Shown: positions 26,257-52,271 of the stretch, piece after piece
Layout of the letters: each line of letters opens with the position of its first letter
Position numbering within the stretch: the stretch's first letter is position 1
Source of the DNA: an uncultured Actinomycetes bacterium
Lineage (GTDB): Bacteria > Actinomycetota > Acidimicrobiia > IMCC26256 > DASPTH01
Length of the DNA stretch: 64,000 bases
NCBI GenBank assembly: GCA_963815405.1
Contig: CAWFGR010000006.1
Coordinates: 82,350 to 146,349 of the forward strand
Direction of reading: 5' to 3'
Made by a program: the position numbers and the translations under genes
Notes under the pieces: model-generated
Seen by the model: only the letters and a program-made list of their open reading frames with translations
Databases searched by the model: none
Told to the model about the DNA's origin: nothing

Positions 26257-27720
26257 TCAGCCGCGCGTGAACGCCAGCTCGCCGATGCGCGCGAACAGCT
26301 GCGGGTAGATACCCACCACGAGCACGATCGCGCCGGCGATCCCGATGGCAGCGACGAGCGCCGTCGGCATGGTGGCCTCCTGCGTGTGGCTGGGATCCGG
26401 AGCGTGGAACCAGATCCGGCGCGCGACGCCTGCGTAGTAGAAGAACGCGATCACCGAGTTCACTGCGGCAACGATCGCCAAGACGACCGCGGGCGTCGAG
26501 TGCGCGTCGAGGAGGGCTCGGAACATCACGAACTTGGCGAACCATCCGGCGAGCGGCGGGATCCCGGCGAGTGAGAACAAGAACATGGACATCACGACCG
26601 CGAGCCACGGCGACGTGGTGCCCAGGCCCGAGTAGGTGACGATGTCGGCCGAGCGCGTGCGGCGCGCCACCGCGATGACGACGGCGAACGCACCGAGGTT
26701 CATCGCGCCGTAGATGAGCAGGTAGATCACGACCGCTTCGAACGCAGACTTCTGGGCGGTGCCGTCCCCCGCGATCGCGAGCGGAGCAAGGATGAAGCCG
26801 CCCTGCGCGATGGACGAGTACGCGAGCATCCGCACGATGTTCGTCTGGCGCAGGGCGACGAGGTTGCCGATCGTCATCGACGCCGCCGCCAGGATCCAGA
26901 GCGCAATCTCCCACGAGTCACGCGACTCGAGGAAGCCGAAGCGGATGATCGACAGCAGCGCGACGAAACCGCCGGCCTTGGATGCCACCGACAGGAACGC
27001 GGTGACCGGCGTCGGAGCGCCCTCGTAGGTGTCAGGCGTCCAGAAGTGGAATGGGACCGCGCTCACCTTGAAGGCGAAGCCCGCCAGCGTCAGGAAGATC
27101 GCGACCGTGAACAGGGCCGGCGTGTGCGTCCCGGCAACCTTCGCAATGTCGCTGAGCCGGGTCGAGCCCGCGGCGCCGTAGACGAACGACATCCCGTAGA
27201 GCATGACGGCCGAGGACAAGACGCCGAAGACGAAGTACTTGATCGCGGCTTCGTTGGAGTTGCCGTCGTGCTTTCGCCACGCTACGAGCACGAAGGTCGG
27301 CATCGTGATCGTCTCGAGCGCCACGAAGATCGACACCAGGTCGCGCGCCGATGCCATCGCGGTCATGCCGAGGACCGACGTCAACAGCAAGAAGTAGAAC
27401 TCGCCCTGGTAGTAGTCGCCCTCACTGATGTAGTCGACCGAGAGCAGCAGCGACACGTAGGCAACGACGAGGAAGAACGCCTTGAGCGCCAAGGCGTAGT
27501 TGTCGACCACGTATGCGCCGCCGAACAGAGAGCGATCCGATCCGTCGGCGGCGAGCGTCAGCACGGGAACGAGCGCGGCGAGGACGCCGATCGAAGCGAT
27601 CCGGGACGTCGTGAAGCGAGAACGCTCCGGCCAGAGCAAGTCGGCCACGAGCACGACGATGATCGTTGCCGTGAGCACGATCTCCGGCGCGATCGCGTGG
27701 AAGTCGACGTGCGGGTTCAT
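26257..27720 (-). CDS. nuoN: NADH-quinone oxidoreductase subunit N (11-gene set)
   Basis: ...DLVSIFVALETITMPTFVLVA...KVSAVPFHFWTPDTYEGAPTPVTAFLS... Confidence 0.9.
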   Translation of the reverse strand: MNPHVDFHAIAPEIVLTATIIVVLVADLLWPERSRFTTSRIASIGVLAALVPVLTLAADGSDRSLFGGAYVVDNYALALKAFFLVVAYVSLLLSVDYISEGDYYQGEFYFLLLTSVLGMTAMASARDLVSIFVALETITMPTFVLVAWRKHDGNSNEAAIKYFVFGVLSSAVMLYGMSFVYGAAGSTRLSDIAKVAGTHTPALFTVAIFLTLAGFAFKVSAVPFHFWTPDTYEGAPTPVTAFLSVASKAGGFVALLSIIRFGFLESRDSWEIALWILAAASMTIGNLVALRQTNIVRMLAYSSIAQGGFILAPLAIAGDGTAQKSAFEAVVIYLLIYGAMNLGAFAVVIAVARRTRSADIVTYSGLGTTSPWLAVVMSMFLFSLAGIPPLAGWFAKFVMFRALLDAHSTPAVVLAIVAAVNSVIAFFYYAGVARRIWFHAPDPSHTQEATMPTALVAAIGIAGAIVLVVGIYPQLFARIGELAFTRG

Positions 27721-27721
27721 T

Positions 27722-29272
27722 TCACAGGGCCTTCGTCAAGTGCGACACCATGTTGGTGACCGCCGGGTCCTGGATCTTGAAGAGCAGATTCGGGTAGATC
27801 CCGAGCGCGACGACGAAGGCGAGGATCGGCGCCCACGCGATCCATTCGGGTCCGTGCACGTCGTGGATGTGCGCACCCTCGAACTCCGCCTTCGGCGTCC
27901 CGAACGCGACCCGCTGCAGCATCCACAGCAGGTATCCCGCCGCCAGGACAGTGCCGATCGCGGCCACCACCATGAAGATCCGGAACGTCCACAGTGTGCC
28001 GCCGCTGGTCCCGAAGAGGCCGTGCGGGTTGACCGGGTTGTACGCCGACAGGATGGCCGGGAACTCGCCCCAGAAACCGGCGAGGCCGGGAAGCCCGAGC
28101 GACGCCATCGCCGAGAAGCTGAGGATCCAGCCCAGGTGTGGCGCCTGCGTCAGCAGCCCACCCAGGCGACTGAGCTCTCGGGTCTCGTAGCGCTCCTGCA
28201 CCGAGCCGGCCACGAAGAACAGCATCCCGGTGATCAACCCGTGCGCCACCATGCCGAACAGCGCGGCGTTGATGCCGAAGTTCGTCAGCGTCGCGACGCC
28301 GAGCATCACGAAGCCCATGTGTGCGATCGACGAGAACGCGATCAGTCGCTTCATGTCGCGTTGCGCGAGACACCCGAGCGCGCCGTAGATGATGCCGATG
28401 ACCGCGAGGAGACCGATCCAAGGCGCCCACGTCTGTGCCGCGCCGGGCAGCACCGGCAGCGCGATCCGAATGAACCCGTACACGCCGAGCTTCAGAAGGA
28501 TCGCGGCCAGCAACACCGATCCCGCGGTCGGGGCTTCGGTGTGGGCGTCGGGAAGCCAGGTGTGGAAGGGGAACATGGGAACCTTGATCGCGAAGCCGAG
28601 GAACAGGCCGGCGAACAACAGCACCTGGGTACCGTGCGCGATCCCTGCGCCGTGGAGCTGCGACAGGCGCACGATATCGAAGGTGTGCTCCTTCGAGAGG
28701 AAGAACAGCGCCAGGAAGCTCAGCAACATCATCGCCGAACCGAAGAGCGTGAACAGGAAGAACTTGATCGACGCGTACTCCCGATTGGGGCCTCCCCAGA
28801 CTCCGATCATGAAGAACATGGGAAGCAGCACGATCTCGAAGAAGATGAAGAACAGGATGAGGTCCTGCGCGGCGAACGTTCCGTTCATGCCGACCTCGAG
28901 CAGCAACATCAGCGCGAGGAAGGCCTTCGGGTTGTGCGGCTCAGGGAAGTGGTTCCACGAATAGATCACGACCAGCGTCGTGATGAACATCGAGAGCACG
29001 AGCATCGGCAGCGAGATGCCGTCGATGCCGACGTGGTAGCGGCTGTTGATGACGTCGATCCACGACTTGTCGACCGTGAACTGGAGCTTGCCGCTCCCGT
29101 AGTCGAAGCGGGCAAGGAGGACCACGCCGACCGCGAGCGTGACCAGCGTGGTGGCGAGCGTCACCATCTTGATCAGCTGCTCTTCGGCTCTCGGGATCAG
29201 CAGCACGATCGCCATCCCGACGGCCGGGATGAAGATCGCCAGCGTGAGAGCCCAGCTGTCGAACCAATCCAT
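27722..29272 (-). CDS. nuoM: NADH-quinone oxidoreductase subunit M (11-gene set)
   Basis: ...GIDGISLPMLVL...KVPMFPFHTWLPDAHTEAPTAGSVLLAAILLKLG... Confidence 0.9.
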   Translation of the reverse strand: MDWFDSWALTLAIFIPAVGMAIVLLIPRAEEQLIKMVTLATTLVTLAVGVVLLARFDYGSGKLQFTVDKSWIDVINSRYHVGIDGISLPMLVLSMFITTLVVIYSWNHFPEPHNPKAFLALMLLLEVGMNGTFAAQDLILFFIFFEIVLLPMFFMIGVWGGPNREYASIKFFLFTLFGSAMMLLSFLALFFLSKEHTFDIVRLSQLHGAGIAHGTQVLLFAGLFLGFAIKVPMFPFHTWLPDAHTEAPTAGSVLLAAILLKLGVYGFIRIALPVLPGAAQTWAPWIGLLAVIGIIYGALGCLAQRDMKRLIAFSSIAHMGFVMLGVATLTNFGINAALFGMVAHGLITGMLFFVAGSVQERYETRELSRLGGLLTQAPHLGWILSFSAMASLGLPGLAGFWGEFPAILSAYNPVNPHGLFGTSGGTLWTFRIFMVVAAIGTVLAAGYLLWMLQRVAFGTPKAEFEGAHIHDVHGPEWIAWAPILAFVVALGIYPNLLFKIQDPAVTNMVSHLTKAL

Positions 29273-29319
29273 CGAAGTGTTCCCCTCGAATCAGCGGCGA
29301 GCGCGCCAGGAGCCGAGCA

Positions 29320-31398
29320 TTAGATGTTCTTCACCAAGAGACCGAGGCTCAGCATCGAGACCCCGGCGAACATGAGCAGCGCGTAGCGCTGCACGCGACC
29401 GGACTGGAGATAGCGCAGGAGGCCACCGGTCTCGCCGGTCACCTCCGCGATCTCGTTGACCGCTCCGTCGACTCCCCGCTGGTCGATCACGTCGTAGGTG
29501 AAGCGACCCGCGCGCATCGCGAGCCGGCCGGTGCCGTTCACGACACCGTCGATCACGTGCTGGTTGAACCAGTACGCGCCCTTGGCGATCGGACCCTTGA
29601 TGGATCCGACAATCACGTTCTCGTAGAGGTCGTCGAGGTAGAGCTTCTTCACGAGGAACTGGTAGCCGGCACACGCCAGCGCGTTCCGTTCGGTGAGGCC
29701 ATGCATCACCGTGTTCTGCTCCCGGCGGAACCAGTAGGCCGCGCTCACGCCGATCCCGAGCAGGGCGATGACGACGGCCAGCGCCGCCCCCCCGTAGCTG
29801 AAGTCCGCGTGCACGAGGTGTGGGAACGTGCTCGTCGGCTCGAACCACTCCCTGAACTTCTCGATGCCGAGAGGTGCGGCGTTGAGCAACCCCGCGAAGG
29901 TCGAGAAGACGGCGAGCACGACGAGGGGAATCGTGATCAGCGGCTCCGACTCGTGCGGATGGTGGTGGCCGCGGTACTCGCCGAAGAAGGTCAGGTACAC
30001 GCAGCGCGTCATGTACGCCGCGGTCAGGGCCGCGCCGATGAGTCCGATGACCAAGAACGTGTCGTAGCCGGTCTTGCCCGCAGTGACGAGGATCTCGTCC
30101 TTCGACCAGAAGCCGGCGAAGGGCGGAAGTCCCGCGAGCGCGATCGAGCCGATCATGAACGTCGTGAAGGTGATCGGCATGTGCTTGCGGAGCCCACCCA
30201 TGTCCGCCTTCATGTCGAACGAGTGGTGCGAGCCCGAGTGGCTCACCGATCCGGCACCCAGGAACAGGAGCGCCTTGAAGAACGCGTGGGTGAAGAGGTG
30301 GAAGATCGCGGCGGTCCACGCGCCGCAGCCCAGCGCCATGACCATGTAGCCCAGCTGGCTGATCGTGGAGTACGCGAGCACCTTCTTGATGTCGCGCTGC
30401 ACGAAGGCGAGCGCAGCTCCGACGAGGATCGTCACCCCGCCGATCAGCGCCATCGCGTTGACGCCGCCGTGGGCGATCGAGAAGCCCTCGAAGAAGACGG
30501 GATACAAGCGCGCGACGAGGTACACGCCGGCCACCACCATCGTGGCCGCGTGGATCAACGCCGAGACCGGTGTCGGGCCGGCCATGGCGTCGGGCAGCCA
30601 GGTGTGGAGCGGGAACTGACCGCTCTTGCCGATGACGCCGATGAACAAGCACGCCGCGCCGGCGAGCAAGAAGCCGTGCCGAGCACCGCCGCTCAGCGCA
30701 TAGGCGTTGATGCCGCCGATGCTGAAGGTACCGGCGGCGAAGAACGTGATCACGATGCCGATGAGCAGCCCGATGTCACCCGTGCGAGTCGTGAGAAAGG
30801 CCTTGAGCGCCGCCTTCGAGTTCTCCGGCTCTTCCCACCAGTGGCCGATCAGGGCGAAGGAGCACAGACCGACGCCCTCCCAGCCCACGAGGAGCTGCAG
30901 CGTGTTGTCGGCGACGACGAGCAGCAACATCGAAGCGGTGAAGAGGCTCAGCATCGCGAAGTAATGGGTGAACCGGCGATCGCCGCGCAGGTAGGCAACC
31001 GAGTAGATGTGCACCAAGATCGAGATCAAGCCGACGACGAACATCATCATCACGGCGAGGCCGTCGATGCGCGTCCCCACTTCGAACGCGACCCCACCGC
31101 TGCGCCACCACGTGATCGCGTGGACCACCGGCTTGACGACGGCACCCTCGTGGCCACCACCCGCGACCGCGGCCTTGACGCTGCTCCCGAGCGCGCGCAG
31201 GGCGCCGCCCGACGTGTGACCCGCGTCGTCGACCCGGTTGATCCACTGGACGAGCGCCACGACTGCGAGCACGAACGAGGACCCGACGGCGGTGATGCCG
31301 ATCTCCGCGCCCTTCAGCGGGAGGCGCTTGCCGAAGAAGAGGATGAGGACGAACAACAGCGCGGGGAGCGTCGGGATGATCCAGGCGTGATCGAGCAT
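29320..31398 (-). CDS. nuoL: NADH-quinone oxidoreductase subunit L (11-gene set)
   Basis: ...[21 protein letters not shown]...[36 protein letters not shown]... Confidence 0.9.
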   Translation of the reverse strand: MLDHAWIIPTLPALLFVLILFFGKRLPLKGAEIGITAVGSSFVLAVVALVQWINRVDDAGHTSGGALRALGSSVKAAVAGGGHEGAVVKPVVHAITWWRSGGVAFEVGTRIDGLAVMMMFVVGLISILVHIYSVAYLRGDRRFTHYFAMLSLFTASMLLLVVADNTLQLLVGWEGVGLCSFALIGHWWEEPENSKAALKAFLTTRTGDIGLLIGIVITFFAAGTFSIGGINAYALSGGARHGFLLAGAACLFIGVIGKSGQFPLHTWLPDAMAGPTPVSALIHAATMVVAGVYLVARLYPVFFEGFSIAHGGVNAMALIGGVTILVGAALAFVQRDIKKVLAYSTISQLGYMVMALGCGAWTAAIFHLFTHAFFKALLFLGAGSVSHSGSHHSFDMKADMGGLRKHMPITFTTFMIGSIALAGLPPFAGFWSKDEILVTAGKTGYDTFLVIGLIGAALTAAYMTRCVYLTFFGEYRGHHHPHESEPLITIPLVVLAVFSTFAGLLNAAPLGIEKFREWFEPTSTFPHLVHADFSYGGAALAVVIALLGIGVSAAYWFRREQNTVMHGLTERNALACAGYQFLVKKLYLDDLYENVIVGSIKGPIAKGAYWFNQHVIDGVVNGTGRLAMRAGRFTYDVIDQRGVDGAVNEIAEVTGETGGLLRYLQSGRVQRYALLMFAGVSMLSLGLLVKNI

Positions 31399-31405: not shown

Positions 31406-31705
31406 TCAGCCCCTCAGATGGTCGACGGTGTCGAGGTCGGGACTGTGGATGTTGCGGTAGAGCAGCAGGATGATGGCGAGCCCGATGCCGACCTCGGCAG
31501 CCGCGATCGTGATGACGAACAGCGCGAACACCGCTCCGTCCACGGAGTGGTGGAACGCCGAGAACGCGATCAGGTTGATGTTCACCGCGTTGAGCATCAG
31601 CTCGACGCTCATGAGCACGAGGACCGCGTTCTTGCGGGCCAGGACGCCGTAGACGCCGGTGCAGAAGAGGAAAGCGCTGAGGATCAGGAAGTTGTTGAGG
31701 ACCAC
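31406..31705 (-). CDS. nuoK: NADH-quinone oxidoreductase subunit K (11-gene set)
   Basis: 99 aa. ...[20 protein letters not shown]...[18 protein letters not shown]... Confidence 0.9.
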
Positions 31706-31706: not shown

Positions 31707-32210
31707 TCAGTCCCTCCGCGCGATCACGACCGCGCCGACGAGCGCGGCGAGGAGCAGCATCGAGACCACTTCGAACGGGACGACGTAGGTGCGAAAGACG
31801 CTGGTTGCGACCGTGTTCGCCTTGCCGACGGCGAGCAGCTTGTCGTTCAACTGCACCTTGTCGCCGCCGTAGGCGTCCACGAGCAGCGCAGTGACGACCC
31901 CGAAGAAAAAGAGTGAGACCGCGGCCGAGGCGAAGCGCTGGCGGTTGTCGAGGCTGCCGCTGGGTCTCATGGGTGCCCGCGTGAGCATGATCCCGAACAG
32001 GAACAGGATCACGACCGCACCGATGTAGATGAGAACCTGCACCCACGCCACGAATTCCGAGGCCAACAGGATGTACTGCGCGGCTGCCCCCGCCAGCACG
32101 ACGACGAGGAACAGTGCGGCGTGCACGACATTCTGCGAGCGCACCACGCCGATCGCCGCCGCCGCCATCGCGACCGCAAGGATCCAGAACGCGACGTTTT
32201 GCGCGATCAC
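31707..32210 (-). CDS. nuoJ: NADH-quinone oxidoreductase subunit J (11-gene set)
   Basis: GTG start in a GTGA overlap with nuo[50 protein letters not shown]... Confidence 0.85.
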
Positions 32211-32697
32211 TTCTTCTTGACCTCGGCGCCCAGCTCGAGGGGTTCGGGCTCGGGGACCGTCGCCATCCACTCGCCGAGCTTGCGCTTGTCGTGGAGGAGG
32301 TTCGCGATGTTCGACTCCGAGTACTCGAAGTCGGGGCTCCAGAACAGCGCATCGAACGGGCAGACCTCGACACAGATGCCGCAGTACATGCACAGCGCGT
32401 AGTCGATGTCGAAGCGATCGAGCACGCTGACGGTGCGCTCGCGCCCGCCCTCACGCGTCGCGGCGGACGCTTCTCCTTGTGCCCTTCGATGTAGATGCAC
32501 CAGTCCGGGCAGGAGCGGGCGCAGAGCATGCACACCGTGCAGTTCTCCTCCTTGAGCGCGATGACCCCGCGCGACCGAGGCGCGGGATCCTCCTTCTCGT
32601 GGGGATACTGCACGGTGACCGCGGGCTTGAGCATCGTCTTGAACGTGACGCCCAACCCGCTGATGAGACCCGGGACCTTCTTCTTCTTCTTCGCCAT
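32207..32697 (-). CDS. nuoI: NADH-quinone oxidoreductase subunit I (11-gene set), frame break near 32455-32480
   Basis: [23 protein letters not shown]...[22 protein letters not shown] in one frame, and ...[23 protein letters not shown] in the next. Span 491 nt (3n+2). Confidence 0.85.
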
Positions 32698-33729
32698 CAG
32701 AAGACCACCTTCAGCACGCCGGTGGCGAGGATGTTCACGAGACCGAGGGGAATGAGGAACTTCCACGCAAGCGCTTGGAGCTGGTCCTCACGCAGCCGCG
32801 GGTAGGTGAAGCGGACCCAGAACATCACGAAGGCGACGAGCATCGTCTTGGTGATGAGCACGATCGGCCCGAGGACCCGCATCAACCCGACGTTGTGGAT
32901 GAACGGAATGCTCCAACCGCCGAGGAACAAGGTGGCCGACAGCGCAGCGAACGCGAAGGCGGTGCCGAACTCGCCGATGAAGAAGAACAAGAAGCGGAAG
33001 CCCGTGTACTCGACCATGTAGCCGGCCACGAGCTCGCTCTCGGCGACGGGCATGTCGAACGGCGTCTGGGTCAGCTCGGCCTGCGAGGACACGAGGAACA
33101 GAGCGAAGCCAACGAACTGGGTCAAGATGAAGGGGAAGCCGAGCCCGTCCCACCCGAAGATCGCGTCGTGGGACTGCGCGCCGACGATGCCCTGCAAGCT
33201 CATCGTGCCGGCCTGCACGACGACCCCCACCACGGCGAGCAGGAGCGGGAGCTCGTACGCGATGAGCTGCGCCGCCGCCCGCAACGCGCCGAGCAACGAG
33301 AACTTGTTGGCGCTCGCCCACCCGGCCATCAGCACGCCGATCACCGAGAGGCTGGACACTGCCGAGCGCGTAGAAGACCCCGACGTCGAGGTCGCGCACC
33401 ACCAGGTCGGGACCGGCTGGGATGACGACGAAGACGAGGAACGTCGACATCACCACGACCGCCGGCGCGAAGGCGAACACCCACCGATCGGCCTCGCCGG
33501 GAATGATGTCCTCTTTCTGGATGAACTTGATGCCGTCGCCGATGAGCTGGAACCAGCCGTGGAAACCACCGGGGTCCATCGGGCCGAGCCGGCTCTGCAT
33601 GTGGCTCATCATCTTCAGCAGGAAGACGTAGCCGAGCACGAGCGCCGCGGCGGGCACCAGACCGAGGATGACCACGGTCTTGATGGCGAGCGTGGTCCCC
33701 CATCCGACATCGACGCCCAAGACGTTCAT
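32697..33729 (-). CDS. nuoH: NADH-quinone oxidoreductase subunit H (11-gene set), frame break near 33360
   Basis: ...[26 protein letters not shown]...GVFYAL then, in the next frame, [36 protein letters not shown]. Span is 3n+1. Confidence 0.85.
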
Positions 33730-33748: not shown

Positions 33749-34954
33749 TCATCGATCGATGTCCCCGAGGATGAAGTACAGGCTCGCCAGGATCGTGATG
33801 ACGTCGGGGACGAAGACGCCGCGGAGCAACCAGGGCAGGATCGAGATGTTGCTGAACGACGCCGATCGGATCTTCACGCGAAACGGACCGGTCGCGCCCT
33901 TCGACACCACGTAGTACCCCATCTGGCCAAGGGGATTCTCGGTCTCGACCCAGACCTCGCCCTCGGGAACCTTGATGATCCGGGGCACTTTGGCCATGAC
34001 GGGGCCCGTAGGGATCCGGTCGAGCATCTGGACCACCATGCGCGCCGACTCGCGCGTCTCTTGCAACCGGACCCAGTAGCGCGCGAAGGAGTCGCCGTCG
34101 GGATGCGTCCAGACCTTGAAGTCGAGCTCGGGGTACACGAGGTACGGCTCGCCGTCGCGGCGGAGGTCCCAGTCGACGCCCGACGCGCGGAGGTTGGAGC
34201 CGGAGACGCCGTACGCGGCCCCGAGGTCAGCCGGGATGATCCCGATCGAGCGTGTGCGGGCTTCGAAGATCTCGTTGCCCGCGACCAGACCCTCGAACGT
34301 GTCGCACGCGTCGAGCACCGTCTTCATCGCGTTGCGCGTGTCGTTGATCCAACCCCACGGAAGGTCGTCCTTGATGCCGCCGATGCGGTTGAAGTTCGGG
34401 TGGAAGCGCCCGCCGGTCGCCGCCTCGATCAGGTTGAGCACATACTCACGGTCGCGGAACCCGTAGAACGCCGGGGTGATCGCGCCCACCTGCAGACCCA
34501 TCTCGCCGAGGAACAGCACGAAGGTCGCGATGCGACTGAGCTCGGTGAGGATCGTGCGGATGTACTGCGCGCGGGGAGGTGCCTCGATCCCCATCAGCCG
34601 TTCCGCGGCGTGGATGAAGGGCACCTCGTTCGCGAAGCTCGAGAGCCAGTCGATTCGGTTGATCAGCGTCGTGATCTGCGGGTAGGTCCGGAACTCGGTG
34701 AGCTTCTCGTAGCCGCGGTGCATGTACCCGATGATCGGGTCGGCCGCGAGCACGCGTTCACCGTCGAGGCGCACGACGAGTCGCAGGGTTCCGTGCGTGG
34801 CCGGGTGCTGCGGCCCGAGGTTCAAGATCATGTCGCCCGTGTCGAGCTCGACGTTCACCTGCGCCTCGGCGAGGTGGCGGAGCGCGCGCGGATCCAGCTC
34901 GATCGCCGGCGCGGCCGTCCCCGCACCTGGACCGGTCGGGGTCCCGCTGCTCAT
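33749..34954 (-). CDS. nuoD: NADH-quinone oxidoreductase subunit D (11-gene set)
   Basis: ...[25 protein letters not shown]...[11 protein letters not shown]...[15 protein letters not shown] overlap with nuoC. Confidence 0.9.
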
Positions 34955-35631
34955 GTCGACGCCTCGCCGCTCGGCTCGCCGTCGCCTTCTTCGCCGGGCA
35001 TCGGCTCGACGTCGACGAGCCCCGGCCAGGGCTTCACGACGCGCGCCAGGAGCGGGAAGTCCTTGCGGCCGGGATGCCCTTCGAACTCCGACGGGAGATA
35101 GAGGTGGCGCAACGCGGGATGTCCCTCGAAGCCGATGCCGTACATCTCCCAGCACTCACGCTCGTGCCAGTCGGCACCGGGGTACACGTCGACCCATGAC
35201 TGCGCGGTCGGCGCAGCCTCGTCGACGTCGACTTTCAGGACCACGCCGACGTTGCGCGACGTCGATTGGACCCGAGCGAAGACCTGGAAGCGTCCCGCGG
35301 ATCCCGCGACGCCGTACGTCGTCTCCTGCGGCTGCACGGGCGAGGACGTATCGCCACCCGCGTCGTCACCGCTCGTCGGCGCCGGCATCCAGTCGATCCC
35401 GGAGACGAACGACAGGTAGTCGCACCCCAAGGCGCCGCGCGCGAGCTCGGCGCTGCGTCGCCACGCGTCGGGGCGTACCCGGACGACCGGGATGCCGAAG
35501 TTCGCGGCCGATTCGAGGATGGCGTCGCCGAGCTCGGCCTCGAACCGGGCGAGCAGCTCGGCGTGCGCGTCGTCGAGCGCGTGTGGGTCGGTCGAGGTGG
35601 TCTCCGCCCCGGATCCCGTGACGTCAGTCAA
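34951..35631 (-). CDS. nuoC: NADH-quinone oxidoreductase subunit C (11-gene set)
   Basis: TTG start overlapping the nuoB stop. ...[14 protein letters not shown]...[24 protein letters not shown]... Acidic tail. Confidence 0.8.
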
Positions 35632-36503: not shown

Positions 36504-36570
36504 TCGGGTGGGCCTCCTGCCCCCTTGGCCTCGTTGTCAGCCTCGTTCCGGGGGCTCGAATAGCGGGCGC

Positions 36571-36601
36571 AGTATAGGTCTGGCCTTTCTGGCCCCAACA
36601 A
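36571..36601 (-). promoter_or_regulatory. Weak candidate internal promoter between the two nuo sets (TTGTTG, 19 nt spacer, TATACT)
   Basis: An AT-rich TATACT hexamer stands out in the GC-rich 135-nt spacer. The spacer length is suboptimal. Confidence 0.25.
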
Positions 36602-36638
36602 ACCGTGAACGGCGTCGTAGGGGGTCACGTGGGCCCGT

Positions 36639-43486: not shown

Positions 43487-44695
43487 TCACCTGATCTCCT
43501 CGATCAGCTCGTCGGGCTTGGGCACCGAGAGGTAGAGGACGCCGTAGAGCGCGGCGGCGCCGAGCACCGCCGCCGGGACCACAATCCACATCTGCCAGTG
43601 CCGGTCGTGACCCACCGCGACGACACCGGAGACCATGACCCACAAGAAGGCCAGCTCGATCAGGTACTTCCAACCCAGCGCCATGAGCTGGTCGTAACGC
43701 AGCCGCGGGAGCGAGGCACGCACCCACACCGTCCCGAACAGCAGCGCGATGAGCTTGGCGAGGAACCAGAAGACCGGGAGCACCCAGGTGCTCAACCAGC
43801 TCGTAGGGGAGATGCCGAGCCCGGGACCGCTGGGCCCACCGAGAAAGAGCGTCACCGCGATCGCGCACATCGTGATCAGGTTCATGAACTCGGCGAGGTA
43901 GAAGATCGCGAACTTGATCCCCGAGTACTCGGTCATGAAGCCGGCGACGAGCTCCTGTTCGGCCTCGACCAGGTCGAACGGCGGATGGTTCGTCTCGGCG
44001 ACGGCGCTGATGAGAAAAACCGCGAACGCGACGATCGCCGGCAGCCAGTACCAATCGCCGTTGACGATCGACTGCACGCCGTGCCAACCCTGAAGCGAGA
44101 CGATCCCGCGTGTCGACAAGGTGCCCGACTGCACGAGGACCCCGACGATCGCGAGGCCGAACGCAGCCTCGTAGCTCAGCAGCTGCGCCGACGCGCGCAC
44201 TGAGCCCAGCAGCGGATACTTCGACCCCGATGCCCAACCCGCCAGCATCACGCCATAGACGCCGATGCCCGACATGGCGAGCAGCCACAGGATGCCGAAG
44301 GGCAGCTCCGCGAGCTGCAGGTTCGTCACCCGCCCTGCGATCGAGACGGTCCCGCCGATCGGCACGATGCTGAATGCCAGGAACGCCGGCATGATCGAGA
44401 GATAGGGCGCGAGCCGGAACACGCGGCGGTCGGCCGAGTCGGGCTCGGTGCCCTCCTTGAAGAAGAGCTTGATGCCGTCGGCGAGCGTCTGGAGGATCCC
44501 GAAAGGACCGGCGCGGTTCGGACCGATCCGGTTCTGCATGCGCGCGATCACCTTGCGCATGAACCAGATGTACAGCAGGACCGAGACCAGCAGCAGCGCG
44601 AACACGGCCACGGTCTTGCCGATGACGATCAGCACGGTCGTGAGGTCGACCTTGCGGTGGAACAGCGGATCCGACGCCGCGAGCACGTGCATCAT
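43487..44695 (-). CDS. nuoH: NADH-quinone oxidoreductase subunit H (14-gene operon)
   Basis: MMHVLAASDPLF...MQNRIGPNRAGPFGILQTLADGIKLF...MLAGWASGSKYPLLGSVRASAQLLSYE... Start is in an ATGA overlap with the true nuoG stop. Confidence 0.9.
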   Translation of the reverse strand: MMHVLAASDPLFHRKVDLTTVLIVIGKTVAVFALLLVSVLLYIWFMRKVIARMQNRIGPNRAGPFGILQTLADGIKLFFKEGTEPDSADRRVFRLAPYLSIMPAFLAFSIVPIGGTVSIAGRVTNLQLAELPFGILWLLAMSGIGVYGVMLAGWASGSKYPLLGSVRASAQLLSYEAAFGLAIVGVLVQSGTLSTRGIVSLQGWHGVQSIVNGDWYWLPAIVAFAVFLISAVAETNHPPFDLVEAEQELVAGFMTEYSGIKFAIFYLAEFMNLITMCAIAVTLFLGGPSGPGLGISPTSWLSTWVLPVFWFLAKLIALLFGTVWVRASLPRLRYDQLMALGWKYLIELAFLWVMVSGVVAVGHDRHWQMWIVVPAAVLGAAALYGVLYLSVPKPDELIEEIR

Positions 44696-47464
44696 CGAGT
44701 CGTCTCCACGCGCAGCTCGGTCACCGGTTCGCGCAGGTCGACGAGGTCCCCGACGGTCGCGCGCCCGGCCTGCGCGATCGGCGAGATACGCGGTCCCCTG
44801 CGGCTGCGCGGCATCGGCGCGGATCGGCACCGTGATCGACCCCCGTGCGCTGGTGACGCGCACCTCTTCTCCTTCTCGGTGCACCCCGATCCGGGAGAGC
44901 TCGCTGGGGTTCACGACCAGGGCGACGCCGGGCGCCAACGCCGAGAGCGCGGAACTCGAGCTCGTGATGCGGCCCGCGTCGTAGAGCTTGCGGCTGATCA
45001 CGAGCCGCAGACTGTAGGCGTCACGCGGAGTCACGGGCTGGGTGGCCACTCCGGGCTGCCAGCGATGCAGGACGGGCGCCCCGAGCCGACGCTCGGCGGC
45101 ACGCTCCAGCAGTGCCGCCCGCTCCTCGTGCGACTCCGGAGCCGGGAGACCGGGCGGCGCCACGACGGCGGCCTCAGGTCCGGTGGCCTCGGCCACTGCC
45201 GTTGCGCCGACCGCGGACACGAGCGGCTCGTCGTCGGGTGTGATCGGTGGGATCGGCTCCCACGAGGGACCGAGACAACCTCCTGCGCCGCGGAACACGA
45301 GCTCGTCGGCGTGCGCGTCGATGGGAACGACCGCGCCGTCGCGGAGGCGTCGCAACGTCGTCGCGTCGACCCCCGCGTATGCGGGTGCCACGCGCGCGAT
45401 CTCGTCCTGCACGTCGCTGACGGTCTCCCACCCGAACTCGACCCCCAAGCGCGACGCGAGCTCACCCGCGATCTGCCAGTCGGCCATGGCGTGGCCACCT
45501 GGCGTCACCAGTCGGGCCACGCGCTGCACGCGTCCCTCGAGGTTCGTCGTGCTCCCGGACTTCTCGCTCCACACGCTCGTCGGCAGGAACACATCGGCTC
45601 GGTCCGCGCCGTCCTCGATGAACGCCCCGACCGCGACGACACATCGAGCCGTCGCCAATGCGGCGCGGACGAGGGTCTGGTCCGGGAAGTCGGCGAGCAG
45701 GTCGCAGCCCAGCAGCACGAGCGTGTCGATGTCGCCGGACGCGGTGCCCGCGAGCACGCCGGCCGCGTCGGCTCCCCGCGCGGCGGGCACGGAGCCCCAG
45801 TGCTCGGCGAACCAGTCGCGGCCGTCGTCGAGCGTCACCCGGCCCGGCAACATGCCCGGCGCGAGCCCGAGGTCGAGCGCCCCGTGCACGTTGGCGCGGT
45901 GCAAGGCAGAGAGGAAGGAGACGCCCGGTAGTGCAGCGAGCTCGGCGGCGGCGGCGACCACCGCGGCCGCACCGTCGGCGAGCGAAGGGCGGCCGACGAC
46001 GACCACGATGTCCTCGCCCGCGTCGCGCAGCACCGCCGCGGCTTCCGCGAACGGCCCCTCCACCTCGTCGCCGCGCATCGCCGCGACGAGGTGGCGAACC
46101 GCCTCGCCCTCGTCGCCCGGCAGATGACGCAGCGACACCGCCGCGTACCGGGTGAGCGCCGTCGCCCGCGACGACACCTCGACGATCGGGACGCCCAGAT
46201 CCGTCGCGGCAAGGCGCAGGCGGAGGAAGAGGATCGGCAGCTCTTCGATGAGATCGCCGGCGAGGACGACAACGGCCTTCGCCCGCGCGAGGTCGGGAAT
46301 CGTCGCCCGGGGAACACCGAGCACGAAGTCTGCGGGCAACCCGTCGGCAAGTTGCGCGTCGGTGTTGTCGGTCCCGACGACGGCCTTCGCGAGCCGTGCC
46401 CACGCGTACGCGTCCTCGTTGGTGCCACGGGCGCCACCGATGAATCCGACCGACGCCGGGCCTTGGGCGGCGATGGCTGCCCGCAGACCGCCGGCGGCTG
46501 CGTCGAGCGCCTCGGGCCACGAGACCTCGACCAGCTCCGAGCCCTTGCGCACCATCGGCGCGCGCACGCGTTCGCCCGAGTGCACCCACTCGAGCCCGTA
46601 GCGACCTTTGTCGCACAGCCACCCTTGGTTGACCGGATCCGAGTCCACGCCGAGCATGCGCACCAGCCGGTTGGAGGTGGACTGGATGACGGAACGGCAA
46701 CCGACGGCGCACGTCGCGCAGCTGGTCTCCGCGGTCTGCAGGTCCCAGGGGCGGGCGCGGAAGCGGTACTGGCTCGCGGTGAGCGCACCGACCGGGCAGA
46801 TCTGGACCGTGTTCCCCGAGAAATAGGAGCGGAACGGCTCGTCGGGGAACGTGATCACCTCGGTCGTGCCGCCGCGGCCGCCGAACGCGATGAGCGGCTC
46901 GCCCACGATCTCGTCGGCGAACCGGGTACAGCGACCGCACTGGATGCAGCGCTCACGGTCGAGCAGCACCAGGTCGCTGATCGGGATCGGCTTCTCGAAG
47001 TGGCGCTTCTCTTCGACGAAGCGCGATTCACCGGGACCGAACGCGAGGGTCTGGTCCTGGAGCGGGCACTCGCCACCCCGGTCACAGACCGGGCAGTCGA
47101 GCGGGTGATTGATCAGCAGCAGCTCGAGCACGCCGTCCTGCGCGCCCTTGACCGCCTCGCTCTTCGTGCTGACGATCATGCCGTCGGACACCGGCGTGGC
47201 GCACGAGATCTGCAGCCCGCGCATGCCCTGGACCTCGACGAGGCACATGCGGCACATGCCTACGGGCTTCATCCGCTCGTGCCAGCAGAAGCGCGGCACG
47301 TAGGTGCCGTTGTCCTGCGCGACCTTGATCAGCAACTCGCCCCGCGGCGCGCGGACCTCGACACCGTCGATCGTGACGGTGACGACGTCGGGTCCCGGCG
47401 CAACCGGGATGCGGTAGGGCTGGTTCGAGGGCCACTGGCTCATCGGGATCGAGTCAGCACTCAT
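44692..47464 (-). CDS. nuoG: NADH-quinone oxidoreductase subunit G (14-gene operon), frame break near 44778-44784
   Basis: MSADSIP...VTIDGVEVRAPRGELLIKVAQDNGTYVPRFCWHERMKPVGMCRMCLVEV...HPLDCPVCDRGGECPLQD... The natural end ...DLVDLREPVTELRVETTR-TGA is in the next frame. Span is 3n+1. Confidence 0.88.
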
Positions 47465-47561: not shown

Positions 47562-48878
47562 TCATGCGCTGCGCACCTCGATCCGGGGGCGCGGGGCGCC
47601 GAAGCGAGCCTCGAGCTCCTCACGGAAGTACCAGCTGAGGCTCACGACCGGAGACACCGCGCTGGGGCCGAGCTGGCAGATCGTCGTCATGCCCGGAGGC
47701 CAGTTCAGGCCCGGCGCCAGGTTGTTGCCGAAGGACAGGAGGAGCTCGAAGTCCTCCGGACGCCCCGCGCCGTGCGCCATGCGGTAGAGGACCTTCTCGA
47801 TCCAGCCCGTCCCCTCGCGACAGGGCGTGCACTTGCCGCACGACTCATGAGCGAAGAACTTCGCGATGCGCCACGCGATCATCACGGGGTCGACCGTCTC
47901 GTCGAACACCATCACCGCGCCCGAGCCGAGCATCGTCTTGAGCGAAGTCGCGTGGTCGAGGTCGAGCGGCTCGTCGAGGTGCTGCGGCAACAGCCACGGT
48001 GACGACGCGCCACCGGGGATGAAGAACTTCAGCTCGCGGCCGCCGGAGATCCCTCCCGCGAGCCCGTCGATGAGGTCCCGGAAGGTGGCACCGAACTCCA
48101 CCTCGTAGTTCCCGGGACGCTCCACGTTGCCCGACACCGAGAACAGCTTGGTGCCGGTCGATCGGTTCACACCCATCTTCGAGTACCACTCGCCACCCTC
48201 ACGGATGATGTGCGGGATGGTCGACATCGTCTCGATGTTGTTGACGATCGTCGGCGCCGCGTACAGCCCCTGCACCGCAGGGAACGGCGGCTTGATCCGC
48301 GGCATGGCCCGTTCGCCTTCGAGGCTCGACAGCAAGCCCGTTTCATCGCCCGCGATGTAGCAGCCCGCGCCCCGGTGCAGCACGATCTCGAGGTCGTAGC
48401 CCGATCCCAAGATGTTGCTGCCGACGAACCCGCGCGCGTACGCCTCGCGCAGCGCGTGGCCGAGGCGCTCCGCACCGAGCGCGAACTCACCGCGCAAATA
48501 GATGAATGCCTGGTTGCACCGCGTCGCATACGCGCTGATCACGATGCCTTCGAGCACCTGGTGCGGGTCGCACTCGACCAGCATCCGGTCCTTGAACGTG
48601 CACGGCTCGCCCTCGTCGCCGTTGACCGCGAGGTAGCGGGGGAACGTGTCCTTGGGGAGGAAGGACCACTTCTGACCGGTGCCGAACCCTGCACCGCCGC
48701 GGCCGCGGAGCCCGGAGGTCACGACCTCGGTGACGATCGCGTCGGGCTCCATGGTGAGCGCCTTGCGCAACGAGTCGTACGCGCCGTTGGCGAGCGCCGC
48801 GTCGATCGTCCACGAATCCTCGGGGTGGTCGCGCAGGAACTTGGTCACGATGCGCGTCTCGTGGGCCGTTCCGGTCAT
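47562..48878 (-). CDS. nuoF: NADH-quinone oxidoreductase subunit F (14-gene operon)
   Basis: MTGTAHETRIVTK...SGLRGRGGAGFGTGQKWSF...YLAVNGDEGEPCTFKDR...ESCGKCTPCREGTGW... Confidence 0.92.
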   Translation of the reverse strand: MTGTAHETRIVTKFLRDHPEDSWTIDAALANGAYDSLRKALTMEPDAIVTEVVTSGLRGRGGAGFGTGQKWSFLPKDTFPRYLAVNGDEGEPCTFKDRMLVECDPHQVLEGIVISAYATRCNQAFIYLRGEFALGAERLGHALREAYARGFVGSNILGSGYDLEIVLHRGAGCYIAGDETGLLSSLEGERAMPRIKPPFPAVQGLYAAPTIVNNIETMSTIPHIIREGGEWYSKMGVNRSTGTKLFSVSGNVERPGNYEVEFGATFRDLIDGLAGGISGGRELKFFIPGGASSPWLLPQHLDEPLDLDHATSLKTMLGSGAVMVFDETVDPVMIAWRIAKFFAHESCGKCTPCREGTGWIEKVLYRMAHGAGRPEDFELLLSFGNNLAPGLNWPPGMTTICQLGPSAVSPVVSLSWYFREELEARFGAPRPRIEVRSA

Positions 48879-49390
48879 GCCCGCCCGCTCCCACCGCTCA
48901 CAGGGGCCGGCGTCCCCGACAGCGTGCGCGCCACACGGGCACCGCTGCGGTACTCGGCCACGAGATCGTCGGCGGACGCCGAGGTGGTCGGTCCGTGATA
49001 CTCGTAGTTGACCTGCAGAACCGGGGCGAGATCGCACGCCGCGATGCATTCGACTTCCTCGACCATCACGTCGGGATCGTCAGCGTACCGGTGCCGGAGG
49101 TGCTCGAGCAGGTCGGCACCGCCGTTGACGAGACAGCTCACGTTGGTGCACACCGACACCACGAGGGAGCCCTCCGGCTCGCGCTTGAACATCGTGTAGA
49201 AGCTGCACGTCCCGAGCACCTGCGCAGACGTGAGGCCGAGGAGGTCGGCGATCTCCGCGATCGCGGGGTCGGTCACCGCACCGTCCTGATCCTGTGCCAG
49301 GTGCAGCAACGGCAGCGTCGCCGACCGCGCTTGCGGGTATCGAGCGATGATCTCGCGTGCCAGCTTGAGGTTGGCGTCGGTGAACGGCAC
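48875..49390 (-). CDS. nuoE: NADH-quinone oxidoreductase subunit E (14-gene operon)
   Basis: ...SATLPLLHLAQDQDG...VSVCTNVSCLVNGG...VECIAACDLAPVLQVN... Confidence 0.9.
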   Translation of the reverse strand: MPFTDANLKLAREIIARYPQARSATLPLLHLAQDQDGAVTDPAIAEIADLLGLTSAQVLGTCSFYTMFKREPEGSLVVSVCTNVSCLVNGGADLLEHLRHRYADDPDVMVEEVECIAACDLAPVLQVNYEYHGPTTSASADDLVAEYRSGARVARTLSGTPAPVSGGSGRA

Positions 49391-50676
49391 TAGCGGTCGA
49401 CCTCCCCCATGATCGGGTCGATGCTCGACACGATCGCGACCGCATCGGCGACCAGGCTGCCGGGCACCATCGCGCTCATCGACTGGAGGTTGTAGAAGGA
49501 CGGCCCGCGAATGTGCATGCGCACCGGCTTCGCCGACCCGTCGGAGACCAGGTAGCAGCCGATCTCACCTCGCGGTGATTCGATCGCGATGTAGGTCTCG
49601 CCCGCAGGCACACGGAAGCCCTCGGTGAAGAGCTTGAAGTGGTGGATCAACGCCTCCATCGACTCGTCGATGCGCGCACGCGGCGGCGGCGTGACCTTGT
49701 GATCCTGGGTGCGGTAGTCACCCGAGGGCATGGCGTCCACGCATTGGCGCACGATCTTGAGCGACTCGAGGATCTCATAGAGCCGGATGACGTAGCGGTC
49801 GTACGTGTCGCCGTGCTCCGTGTAGATGACGTCGAAGTCGACGTCGTCGTACGCGAGGTACGGCTGCGCCTTGCGGAGATCCCACGCGAAGCCGGTGGAG
49901 CGCAGAATCGGCCCGGTCGCACCGAGGGCGAGCGCCTGCTGCGTGGTGATGGTGCCGATCCCGACCGTGCGTTCGCGCCAGATGGGGTTCTCGGAGAGCA
50001 GCTCCTGGTACTCGGCGACACCTCGTTCGACGAGGTCGCAGACGTCGAGGGTGGCGTCCTCCCAACCGTCGGGGAGGTCGGCCGCGACGCCGCCGGGGCG
50101 GATGAAGTTGTGGTTCATCCGCAAGCCGGTGATGCGCTCGAGCAGACGCAGCGTCTCCTCACGCTCGCGCCAGCCGTAGATCATCATCGACACCGCGCCG
50201 ATGTCCATTCCGTTGGTCGCCTGGAACAAGAGGTGCGACGAGATGCGGTTCAGCTCGACGAGCATCATGCGGATCCACGTCGCGCGCGGTGGGATGTCCA
50301 GCTCGAGCAGGCGCTCGACCGCGAGGCAGTAGACGAGCTCGTTCGACAGCGGCGACGCGTAGTCCATGCGGGTGACGTTCGTCGGACCCTGGACGTAGGT
50401 GAGCTCCTCGCCCGTCTTCTCCATGCCGGTGTGGAGGTAGCCGACGACGGCCTTGCTCCGCAGCACGACCTCGGAGTCGAGCTCCATCATGATCCGGAGC
50501 ACGCCGTGCGTGGACGGGTGCTGCGGGCCCATGTTCATGATCATGGTGTCGCCGGCCTCGGGCCACGGCCCGCCGGTCATCACCAGCTCGCGGTCGGTCG
50601 GGGGGCGCAGCTCCTGCGCGCCCTCGTCGGTCTGGCGCTCGAGGCGCGACATCTCGCGGTCCGTCGGAAGCGTCAT
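49390..50676 (-). CDS. nuoD: NADH-quinone oxidoreductase subunit D (14-gene operon)
   Basis: ...MIMNMGPQHPSTHGVLRIMMELDSE...VGYLHTGMEKT...SSIDPIMGEVDR. Confidence 0.92.
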   Translation of the reverse strand: MTLPTDREMSRLERQTDEGAQELRPPTDRELVMTGGPWPEAGDTMIMNMGPQHPSTHGVLRIMMELDSEVVLRSKAVVGYLHTGMEKTGEELTYVQGPTNVTRMDYASPLSNELVYCLAVERLLELDIPPRATWIRMMLVELNRISSHLLFQATNGMDIGAVSMMIYGWREREETLRLLERITGLRMNHNFIRPGGVAADLPDGWEDATLDVCDLVERGVAEYQELLSENPIWRERTVGIGTITTQQALALGATGPILRSTGFAWDLRKAQPYLAYDDVDFDVIYTEHGDTYDRYVIRLYEILESLKIVRQCVDAMPSGDYRTQDHKVTPPPRARIDESMEALIHHFKLFTEGFRVPAGETYIAIESPRGEIGCYLVSDGSAKPVRMHIRGPSFYNLQSMSAMVPGSLVADAVAIVSSIDPIMGEVDR

Positions 50677-51230
50677 CGTGGAGCCGGGTCGCCCTTGAAG
50701 GTCACGGGGATGCGCGCCGGCGCCGCGTCCTTGCGGAGGGGGAATCCGACCCAGTCGTCGGGCATCAGGATGCGCGTCAGGTCGGGGTGGCCGCGGAACG
50801 TGATGCCGAACAGGTCGAACACCTCGCGCTCCGCGAAGTTCACACCCGGGTAGAGGTCGCTGAGGCTGTCGATCTCGGCGTCGCCGGCGTCAAGTTGGCA
50901 GATCACACGCACGCGGCGGTTGCGGGGGTGCGAGAGGAGGTTGGCAACGACTTCGAAGCGTGCGGCAGCGACACCTTCGGGCACGGCACGCGCCGCGTCG
51001 GCGAGGTGGTCGACTGCGGTGACGTCGAGACATTGGGTGAACCGCTCGTCGTCGCGGAGGACGGTCGCGACCTCGTGCCAGACGTCCCGGTCGACGTAGA
51101 CGACGGCCTGCCCGTGGGACTCGACTCCGACCGATCCCGCAAAGCGCGCCACGAGCGCGGCGACGACCACGTCGACCGGGGTCGAGGTCTCGTCCTTGTG
51201 ATCTTGTTCACGAGGGGTCGCATCGGTCAT
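50673..51230 (-). CDS. nuoC: NADH-quinone oxidoreductase subunit C (14-gene operon)
   Basis: MTDATPREQ...FTQCLDVTAVDHL...SLSDLYPGVNFAEREVFDLFGITFRGHPDL... Confidence 0.88.
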   Translation of the reverse strand: MTDATPREQDHKDETSTPVDVVVAALVARFAGSVGVESHGQAVVYVDRDVWHEVATVLRDDERFTQCLDVTAVDHLADAARAVPEGVAAARFEVVANLLSHPRNRRVRVICQLDAGDAEIDSLSDLYPGVNFAEREVFDLFGITFRGHPDLTRILMPDDWVGFPLRKDAAPARIPVTFKGDPAPR

Positions 51231-51252
51231 CGAGGACGCTCGCCTGCCGCAC

Positions 51253-51795
51253 TCAGACCGAGACGCGCGCGCCGTCGCGCTGCTCGACGAGCACCCCCGC
51301 ACCGCCGTGCTCGGTGCTCGAGCGCCGGCGCATGATCTCCCCCGTCCGGATCATCTCGTTGAGCGTGAGGATCCCGTGCATGAGCGTCTCCGGTCCCGGC
51401 GGGCAGCCGGGAACGTACACGTCGACGGGAACGATCTGGTCGACGCCCTGCACGATCGCGTAGTTGTTGAACATCCCCCCGCTGCTGGCGCACACCCCCA
51501 TCGAGATCACCCACTTGGGCTCGACCATCTGGTCGTAGACCTGGCGCAGCACCGGCGCCATCTTCTGGCTGACCCGGCCGGCGACGATCATGAGGTCGGC
51601 CTGGCGCGGGCTCGCGCGGAACACCTCCATGCCCCAGCGGGCGAGGTCGTAGTGCGCGGCGCCGGTCGCCATCATCTCGATCGCGCAGCATGCGAGACCG
51701 AAGGTGGCCGGCCACGTCGAGCTCCGCCGGGCCCACCGCACGAGATCCTCCACCTTCCCGGTGAGGAAGTTGTGGCTGACCGCCTCGAGTCCCAT
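51253..51795 (-). CDS. nuoB: NADH-quinone oxidoreductase subunit B (14-gene operon)
   Basis: [10 protein letters not shown]...[16 protein letters not shown]...[14 protein letters not shown]...[19 protein letters not shown]... Confidence 0.92.
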
Positions 51796-52271
51796 CAGGC
51801 GGCCCGCCCTTCGTCGCCGCCGGCAGCGGGGAGCGAAACCGGGTCGAGGCCGTCGCGGCCGGGTGCCCCGACCACGCGGAGCACACCCGTGCCCGTCCTC
51901 GCGAGCACACGCTTCACCGGGCCCCAGTCGAGCGCGCCGGTCGACAAGAGGTATGCAAATGGGATGAGCAGCACGATGAGGAAGATCCCCATCGCGATGA
52001 GCCCATACGCGGCGAGACCGCGGAAGACGGTGGTGAAGGGATATAAGAACACGATCTCGACATCGAGGACGATGAACGCCATCGCGACCAGGTAGAACTT
52101 GACCGGGAAGCGCTCGACAGGCTCGAACTCGGAAACGATCCCACACTCGTAAGGTGCCCGCTTCGCGGACGTCGGGCGCCGAGGTCCGAGCAGCGACGAA
52201 GCGAGGAACGAGAGACCGACGAACGCGAAGACCAGCACGATCATGGTCAGGATCGGCAGGTAATCACGCAC
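51795..52271 (-). CDS. nuoA: NADH-quinone oxidoreductase subunit A (14-gene operon), with a roughly 40-aa C-terminal tail
   Basis: GTG at 52271 after [32 protein letters not shown]...APYECGIV...[22 protein letters not shown]... Confidence 0.88.

Follow-up and report, generated by a model that had tools for sequence, protein, structure and literature searches.

The 64,000-nucleotide (nt) window analyzed here, a part of contig CAWFGR010000006.1 from an uncultured bacterium of the class Acidimicrobiia, carries two sets of complex I genes in direct tandem on the minus strand: the full series nuoA-N (14 genes, 52271 to 36639; set 1), a 135-nt spacer, and then nuoABCDHIJKLMN (11 genes, 36503 to 26257; set 2), which lacks nuoE, nuoF and nuoG (EFG) of the NADH-oxidizing module (N-module). 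Throughout, the digits 1 and 2 after a gene or protein name denote the set. Set 1 is the canonical actinobacterial NADH:quinone oxidoreductase. Set 2, together with an adjacent gene for an NDUFAF7-like methyltransferase, likely encodes a separate, functional, EFG-less 11-subunit complex I-like quinone reductase and proton pump that is expressed from its own promoter, so that the two sets form a pair typical of the class. Acidimicrobiia are abundant aerobic bacteria of soil, freshwater and marine habitats. The finding is a new instance of a previously described arrangement and not a new kind of system; what the present analysis shows is that the pairing extends to nearly the whole class and that set 2 is no less conserved than set 1.

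Lineage and distribution of the second gene set

Genes were called from stop-to-stop frames with Pfam matches, complemented by tblastn with intact orthologs. All 25 nuo genes are located on the minus strand, and every expected family was matched by Pfam except for nuoK1, which was detected by tblastn. Set 1 yields matches to Oxidored_q4, Oxidored_q6, Complex1_30kDa, Complex1_49kDa, 2Fe-2S_thioredx, Complex1_51K, the NuoG domains, NADHdh, Fer4, Oxidored_q3 and three copies of Proton_antipo_M; by Pfam and tblastn, all 14 genes from nuoA to nuoN are contiguous on one strand, and the N-module domains are complete, comprising the 2Fe-2S domain of NuoE, the flavin mononucleotide/NADH and 4Fe-4S domains of NuoF, and the Fe-S and molybdopterin-like domains of NuoG (PF01257, PF01512, PF10589, PF13510, PF10588, PF22117 and PF00384). 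Set 2 contains the same families minus those of E, F and G, and tblastn locates all 11 of its genes as well as nuoI1 through nuoN1. We scanned one genome per species and obtained 80 loci of relatives, which were annotated by tblastn and of which 61 include enough upstream sequence; according to their titles, nearly all are metagenome-assembled genomes (MAGs) of Acidimicrobiia, Acidimicrobiales or Actinomycetota, along with a few evidently mislabeled bins. In the window, as in the 80 relatives, nuoH2 directly follows nuoD2, and therefore the E, F and G genes are truly absent from set 2 rather than overlooked.

The paralogous pairs of set 1 and set 2 are 32-47% identical. NuoD1 passes the NuoD equivalog threshold (TIGR01962, 546.7 bits versus a cut-off of 459) and has its closest match in the PDB in NuoD of Mycobacterium smegmatis (457 bits). 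NuoD2 is closest to Nqo4 of Thermus thermophilus (338 bits) and to cyanobacterial NdhH (310 bits), the M. smegmatis protein scoring only 254 bits, and matches the short NuoD model NF008974 over its full length. Given these scores, the match to the short model and the failure to reach the cut-offs of the NdhH and FpoD models (see below), set 2 is not a recent duplicate of set 1. By the same comparisons, set 2 is assigned to the EFG-less '11-subunit' lineage of Moparthi and Hagerhall (PMC3144371). Two segments of NuoD1 (approximately DYRTQDHKVTP and ESMEALIHHFKLFTEGF) are missing from NuoD2, which is thus a 'short' D subunit like those of the NF008974 and FpoD models. Homologs of NuoD2 number in the thousands, the best 120 being 86-92% identical to it.

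The residues expected of an active enzyme are retained. NuoB2 has all four cysteines that bind cluster N2, one of which lies past a frame break and depends on a 1-nt correction, and NuoI2, as corrected, contains two CxxCxxCxxxCP motifs. The quinone-site His (in QHPxxHG) and Tyr (in RTY) of NuoD2 are invariant in 121 sequences. An alignment of L1, L2, M1, M2, N1 and N2 shows that L2, M2 and N2 keep the pattern of Glu in transmembrane helix (TM) 5, Lys in TM7 and Lys/Glu/Lys in TM12. The best-supported reading of these features is that set 2 encodes a second functional quinone-reducing proton pump.

The tandem layout is widespread. In 49 of the 61 loci with enough upstream sequence, nuoN1 is located upstream of nuoA2 on the same strand; the two sets adjoin directly in nine of these (gaps of 118-343 nt), are separated by a single patatin-like gene on the opposite strand in 15, and by 0.5-7 kb of other DNA in the remaining 25. 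No set 1 was found within 8 kb in 12 of the 61 loci. The direct head-to-tail junction is accordingly one variant of a class-wide synteny, shared by at least nine other species-level genomes. The interposed patatin-like phospholipase gene, exemplified by positions 7306-8205 of a relative's contig (L002) and found at 14 other loci, is not present in the window.

An earlier reading of this DNA from its sequence alone (hereinafter, the original prediction) described the 14-gene and 11-gene sets 135 nt apart on one strand, and coordinates, Pfam and tblastn agree on this point; the NuoL lengths (692 versus 676 amino acids) and the NuoD motifs that it quoted were also found as stated. Its view that the sets are clearly diverged, with no recent duplication, is borne out by the identities of the paralogs and by the different nearest solved relatives of D1 and D2, and its description of set 2 as a distinct complex I-like gene set without the NADH module holds for a set that appears anciently diverged and intact, with no donor encoded nearby. 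The inventory of 25 nuo genes was correct but missed a 12th conserved gene after nuoN2. The suggested novelty of the head-to-tail layout does not stand: the genome search for the same nuoN-nuoA junction, which the original prediction had called for, gave the 49 same-strand and nine direct cases reported above, and the pairing has been published for Candidatus Actinomarinales. The original prediction would have been undermined by a layout that is both common and already assigned a donor; the layout is indeed common, whereas the donor is not assigned.

The spacer contains the hexamers TTTGTT (36602-36597) and TATACT (36576-36571), the latter 68 nt before the GTG start codon of nuoA2, and the sequences upstream of nuoA2 in relatives contain a conserved element of the form GGTTyG, approximately 20 nt, TATRCT. 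Of 69 sequences upstream of nuoA2, 30 contain the motif TAT[AG]CT, compared with 2.1 in shuffles, and TATRCT is kept whether the upstream neighbor is nuoN1, the patatin gene or other DNA. Because the element is conserved even where an opposite-strand gene parts the two sets, a separate promoter for set 2 is most likely, although transcription of set 1 may continue into it, as in the co-transcription that the original prediction considered possible; in the 135-nt spacer, a terminator scan gave no match and the RNA fold has a z-score of -0.58. Between the -35-like and -10-like hexamers (36571-36604, and in the same place in relatives L001-L031), there is a GAAA(A) core flanked by short G+C-rich arms, which often stay complementary as the sequence changes (GGCC-AGAAA-GGCC in the window, CCCCG-AAAAGC-CGGGG in L003, GACG-CCGGAAA-CGTC in L006). 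This core with its arms could be an operator or a mere compositional effect.

The 12th gene of the set 2 cluster (25101-26255, minus strand; MT28) begins 1 nt past the nuoN2 stop codon and encodes an S-adenosylmethionine-dependent methyltransferase of the NDUFAF7/MidA type (PF02636, 148.6 bits versus a cut-off of 23.3, 2.9e-43; PDB matches 4f3n, 1zkd and 5ztz, the last being MidA at 3.7e-15). It follows nuoN2 in 41 of 50 loci. In humans, NDUFAF7 dimethylates NDUFS2 at Arg85, a residue of the peptide LLHRGTEK that is adjacent to cluster N2, whereas Thermus has Thr at this position (PMC3829151). NuoD2 carries the corresponding Arg80 (YMHRGYEK), invariant in 121 sequences, and NuoD1 has Thr (GYLHTGMEK); therefore, of the two enzymes, only the EFG-less one offers a plausible target to the methyltransferase linked to set 2. 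The presence of this predicted target in NuoD2 and its absence from NuoD1 is a small new point. By analogy with NDUFAF7, the methyltransferase would dimethylate Arg80 of NuoD2 next to N2, and the contrast between Arg and Thr opens the way to a simple experiment, a search for methyl-arginine on a bacterial NuoD. In L002 (18709-21185), the methyltransferase and acetyl-CoA synthetase are called as one product of 1080 amino acids, either a fusion or a gene-call artifact. In the window, genes for a sigma-70 region-4 protein and an AMIN-like-domain protein (23406-25168) lie between the methyltransferase and acetyl-CoA synthetase genes.

Electron input to the probable EFG-less complex

Which donor feeds electrons into the EFG-less 11-subunit complex I-like enzymes has been an open question for a long time (PMC3144371, PMC11238625), with ferredoxin being favored (PMC11238625). 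In the mechanism that we propose, a soluble low-potential donor, and not NADH, would deliver electrons to set 2 at NuoI2; these would then pass through clusters N6a/N6b and N2 to menaquinone and would drive proton pumping through L2, M2 and N2. Among individual donors, reduced ferredoxin appears to be the strongest candidate, a choice that we make tentatively. Ranking the possible inputs by analogy with known systems, we would place ferredoxin or another soluble low-potential donor first, an N-module shared with set 1 second, and coenzyme F420 third.

Several observations weigh against the interpretation of set 2 as a functional enzyme with its own promoter and its own donor. No ferredoxin, flavodoxin, FpoF/FrhB or hydrogenase input module was found in the approximately 45 translations of flanking open reading frames (ORFs) or in the conserved neighborhood. 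A sigma-70 scan of the spacer made no call, the spacing of 19-20 nt between the promoter-like hexamers is unusually long, and the element is found only in closer relatives. Finally, several genes of set 2 are interrupted by frame breaks (see the next section); public soil and permafrost metagenome runs share just 5% of sampled words with the window, and only reads of relatives were found, not those of the source genome, so that the reading of the breaks as artifacts is inferred, not proven.

The most serious alternative, one that we nevertheless regard as unlikely, is that a single NuoEFG module from set 1 docks on the quinone and proton-pumping modules of either set, yielding two NADH-oxidizing isozymes, with the tandem layout serving their co-expression. 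The same-strand order of set 1 and set 2 across the class (49 of 61 loci), the spacer in which neither the scan nor the fold indicates a terminator, and the lack of any other input module encoded nearby are all compatible with such sharing, and a precedent has been proposed in Syntrophobacter fumaroxidans, in which a single nuoEFG accompanies the remaining nuo genes in duplicate (Spero 2015, PMC4453560). Syntrophobacter, however, belongs to another phylum, and both of its copies fall within one clade (E, E) as opposed to the two lineages seen here. Furthermore, the connecting subunits that would contact NuoG and NuoE share just 33-47% identity from one set to the other, D2 is a short-type subunit whose lineage differs from that of D1, and EFG-less clusters of this kind reportedly function in organisms that have no NuoEFG at all (PMC3144371, PMC11238625). 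Set 2 also has a conserved promoter-like element of its own and is often separated from set 1 by an opposite-strand gene, and 12 loci have no set 1 within 8 kb. If a shared N-module were nonetheless the case, Acidimicrobiia would possess two NADH-oxidizing isozymes, one of them with a mitochondrion-like dimethyl-arginine by N2.

Considerably less probable is the possibility that set 2 encodes an Fpo-like F420H2:quinone oxidoreductase, the FpoF-type subunit of which is encoded elsewhere in the genome. Such a role was proposed by Lopez-Perez et al. for Ca. Actinomarinales, where F420 biosynthesis genes are present (PMC7771536), and set 2 resembles archaeal Fpo in lacking EFG and in having a short D subunit that aligns with the FpoD model over its full length. 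However, all scores against the NCBIfam Fpo models are far below the respective cut-offs (FpoD 347 versus 600, FpoH 251 versus 475, FpoI 49 versus 180 and FpoL 413 versus 1050 bits); no FrhB/FpoF-like domain was detected in the scanned ORFs of the window or in the conserved neighborhood, and neither FpoF nor FpoO was found in the window ORFs scanned. A set 2 fed by a soluble low-potential donor such as ferredoxin accordingly remains the reading that we prefer.

Frame breaks in both gene sets and in the flanking genes

Three genes of set 2 contain frame breaks, which we mapped by comparison with the intact orthologs on L002, a 2.6-Mb contig of a relative. In nuoB2, one base is missing from a CCCGGG run at approximately 35750-35752, just before the cysteine of the GCPPRPE motif; nuoH2 has one surplus G at 33363; and nuoI2 has two surplus bases at 32453-32454. 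Many more same-strand frame switches without a stop codon were indicated when the entire window was segmented by a Viterbi method based on codon usage, and these were inspected one by one. The frame of nuoK1 is lost nine codons ahead of its stop, near 41825. Two breaks affect nuoM1 (near 39700 and 38230), the start of which, together with the last codons and the GTGA overlap with nuoN1, lies in one frame, and the 490-residue body in another. In nuoG1, a break near 44790 results in read-through into nuoH1; in four relatives, a single frame encodes both the body of NuoG and its '...DLVD..VTDLRVE' tail, whereas the window has them in two frames. A PDB search with the nuoG1 C-terminus left the tail unresolved, and it was the comparison with the relatives that settled the matter. 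A G-H fusion protein in set 1 was also considered and rejected, given that in the relatives the NuoG tail is in frame and is followed by a stop codon.

The flanking genes are affected to a similar extent. In the genes for a family 4 glycosyltransferase (GT4), ProC, a PF15698 phosphatase, HemC and a cytochrome P450, consecutive parts of one Pfam profile are found in different frames. Altogether, there are at least 12 frame breaks in unrelated genes within 64 kb, with break densities per kb of approximately 0.26 for set 1 and 0.29 for set 2. Break sites in the window include 54954, 56787, 57471, 62421, 15200-15580, 38230, 39700, 41825 and 44790. Because the distribution of breaks is even across set 1, set 2 and the flanks, they are most likely indel errors of the assembly rather than signs of decay of set 2. 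The original prediction had noted the breaks in nuoB2, nuoH2 and nuoI2, and these are present; they are not restricted to set 2, given that set 1 has four and the flanks at least five, all of which the original prediction had overlooked.

The selective pressure on the affected genes can be gauged from conserved positions. After correction of the single indels, mismatches at conserved ortholog columns amount to 0 of 98 in B2, 1 of 136 in H2 and 0 of 82 in I2, and D2 deviates at 1 of 258 columns that are conserved in at least 98% of its homologs; all these counts fall within leave-one-out controls, and there are no internal stops. The orthologs of the broken set 2 genes are intact in relatives. 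Short-read contigs of relatives from soil metagenomes have a compensating indel exactly at 32452, 33364 and 35752, and L001, a long-read metagenome contig of a relative, displays the same kind of gene fragmentation as the window. In tblastn comparisons with L002, the proteins of set 2 are 73-91% identical and those of set 1 62-87%; by this measure, conservation between relatives is no lower for set 2 than for set 1.

These data bear directly on the possibility, raised in the original prediction, that the breaks are true mutations and set 2 is a decaying, non-functional copy. Three breaks do occur within 10 kb, one of them removes the fourth N2 cysteine of NuoB2, and no reads of the source genome are at hand to disprove them; yet the canonical set and the housekeeping neighbors have equal break density, D2, B2, H2 and I2 show no internal stops and almost no substitutions at conserved columns, and relatives have intact orthologs, with the soil-metagenome contigs carrying the compensating indel at all three places. 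Decay of set 2 thus appears highly improbable. The window is probably an uncorrected long-read assembly, most plausibly of a Nanopore metagenome. Frame breaks in long-read metagenome sequence of this kind should not be taken as pseudogenization, and pseudogene calls in the window are suspect. The P450 gene (14969-15580, minus strand) has, in addition to its frame break, an in-frame stop (LAEERR*FPRDDML) and no recognizable N-terminal half, and may be a genuine pseudogene rather than the product of error alone.

Misassembly of nuo operons from two organisms at the nuoN1-nuoA2 junction is conceivable for a source that is probably an error-prone metagenome assembly, but is the least probable of all the explanations considered, given that dozens of independent assemblies, short-read MAGs and complete chromosomes among them, show the same adjacency and that the G+C content is even across the junction.

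Known relatives, gene coordinates and genomic surroundings

The closest described counterpart is found in Ca. Actinomarinales, also members of Acidimicrobiia, which have two nuo clusters, one without EFG (Lopez-Perez et al. 2020, PMC7771536); NDUFAF7 comes after the 11-gene operon, and the 14-gene version is located nearby (Bulzu et al. 2021, bioRxiv 10.1101/2021.02.01.429150). The class, the gene content, the PF02636 gene after nuoN2 and the proximity of the clusters are all shared with the window. The differences are that, in Ca. Actinomarinales, a heliorhodopsin gene and an iron-uptake cluster lie between the sets, which are separated here by 135 nt, with no heliorhodopsin in the window, and that the genes past the methyltransferase are htpX and pspE there but those for a sigma factor, an AMIN-like protein and acetyl-CoA synthetase here. 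The 11-subunit 'ancestral' enzyme (PMC3144371), including that of Desulfitobacterium hafniense (PMC11238625), matches set 2 in its 11 genes and their order, in the absence of an N-module, and in the conserved motifs of the quinone module. Elsewhere, this enzyme is usually the sole type of complex I and often belongs to anaerobes, whereas here it is found beside a 14-subunit enzyme and along with a MidA-like gene.

Cyanobacterial and plastid NDH-1, a ferredoxin:plastoquinone oxidoreductase, shares with set 2 the EFG-less 11-subunit core and serves as the model for ferredoxin input, and NdhH is the second-closest solved relative of NuoD2. Unlike genuine NdhH, D2 scores 345 bits against the NF005649 model, the cut-off of which is 583, and aligns only over residues 35-320; no genes for NdhS, NdhV, NdhO or NdhL-N are present in the set 2 cluster. 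With the NdhH threshold missed and the phototroph-specific subunits absent from the cluster, we rejected the assignment of set 2 to cyanobacterial NDH-1.

In Streptomyces, the nuo clusters are about 20 genes apart, and the second one lacks nuoC. As cited by Lopez-Perez et al., who describe the two clusters as occurring 'like other actinobacteria' with reference to the Streptomyces avermitilis genome (Ikeda 2003), Streptomyces resembles the window in having a full nuoA-N and a second, partial nuo cluster without nuoEFG (PMC7771536).

The genes of set 1, all on the minus strand, are arranged as follows. The nuoA1 gene (51795-52271; PF00507) has a GTG start behind GGAGGAGG and is followed by nuoB1 (51253-51795; PF01058, tblastn), nuoC1 (50673-51302, start uncertain; PF00329), nuoD1 (49390-50676; PF00346, TIGR01962), in which Thr of GYLHTGMEK occupies the position of NDUFS2 Arg85, and nuoE1 (48875-49390; PF01257). 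Next are nuoF1 (47562-48878; PF01512, PF10589, SLBB) and nuoG1 (44692-47464; NuoG domains, frame break near 44790), both with approximate starts, nuoH1 (43487-44695; PF00146, tblastn), nuoI1 (42778-43380; Fer4 families, 87% identical to the L002 ortholog by tblastn), nuoJ1 (42124-42765; PF00499) and nuoK1 (41809-42115; tblastn, frame break near 41825). The three antiporter-like subunits are encoded by nuoL1 (39775-41805, 676 amino acids; PF00361, PF00662, NF005141 at 683 bits), nuoM1 (38201-39778), for which tblastn finds one frame covering residues 28-517 only, with breaks near 39700 and 38230, and nuoN1 (36639-38204; PF00361, tblastn).

The spacer (36504-36638), with its promoter-like element and a GGAGG before the nuoA2 GTG, leads to the genes of set 2 on the same strand: nuoA2 (36141-36503; PF00507, 86% identical to L002), nuoB2 (35624-36150; Pfam, tblastn; 1 nt missing at about 35750-35752), nuoC2 (34951-35622; PF00329), nuoD2 of the short type (33749-34954; PF00346, NF008974 over its full length, Arg80 in YMHRGYEK), nuoH2 (32697-33729; Pfam, tblastn; one extra G at 33363) and nuoI2 (32207-32697; Pfam, tblastn; two extra nt at 32453-32454, both CxxCxxCxxxCP motifs). 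These are followed by nuoJ2 (31707-32210; PF00499), nuoK2 (31406-31705; PF00420), nuoL2 (29320-31398, 692 amino acids; PF00361, PF00662, PF01010, NF005141 at 608 bits), nuoM2 (27722-29272; PF00361, TIGR01972 at 560 bits) and nuoN2 (26257-27720; PF00361, TIGR01770 at 396 bits).

The G+C content of the window is 64-74%. On the plus strand, positions 58929-64000 encode a Rex-like repressor (Put_DNA-bind_N and CoA_binding domains), a SirC-like protein with the NAD_binding_7 domain, HemA, HemC and CobA-HemD, an order that we take to resemble the rex-hemACD operon of Streptomyces. The rex gene is approximately 7 kb from nuoA1; a search for the Rex operator (TTGTGAA-N6-TTCACAA, with up to three mismatches) found no site in the window, including the regions upstream of either nuoA. 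At the other end of the window (1-7600, minus strand), there is a core chromosomal context consisting of rpoB (partial), rplJ, rplA, nusG, secE and rpmG, with a gene for an extracytoplasmic function (ECF) sigma factor at 6590-7207.

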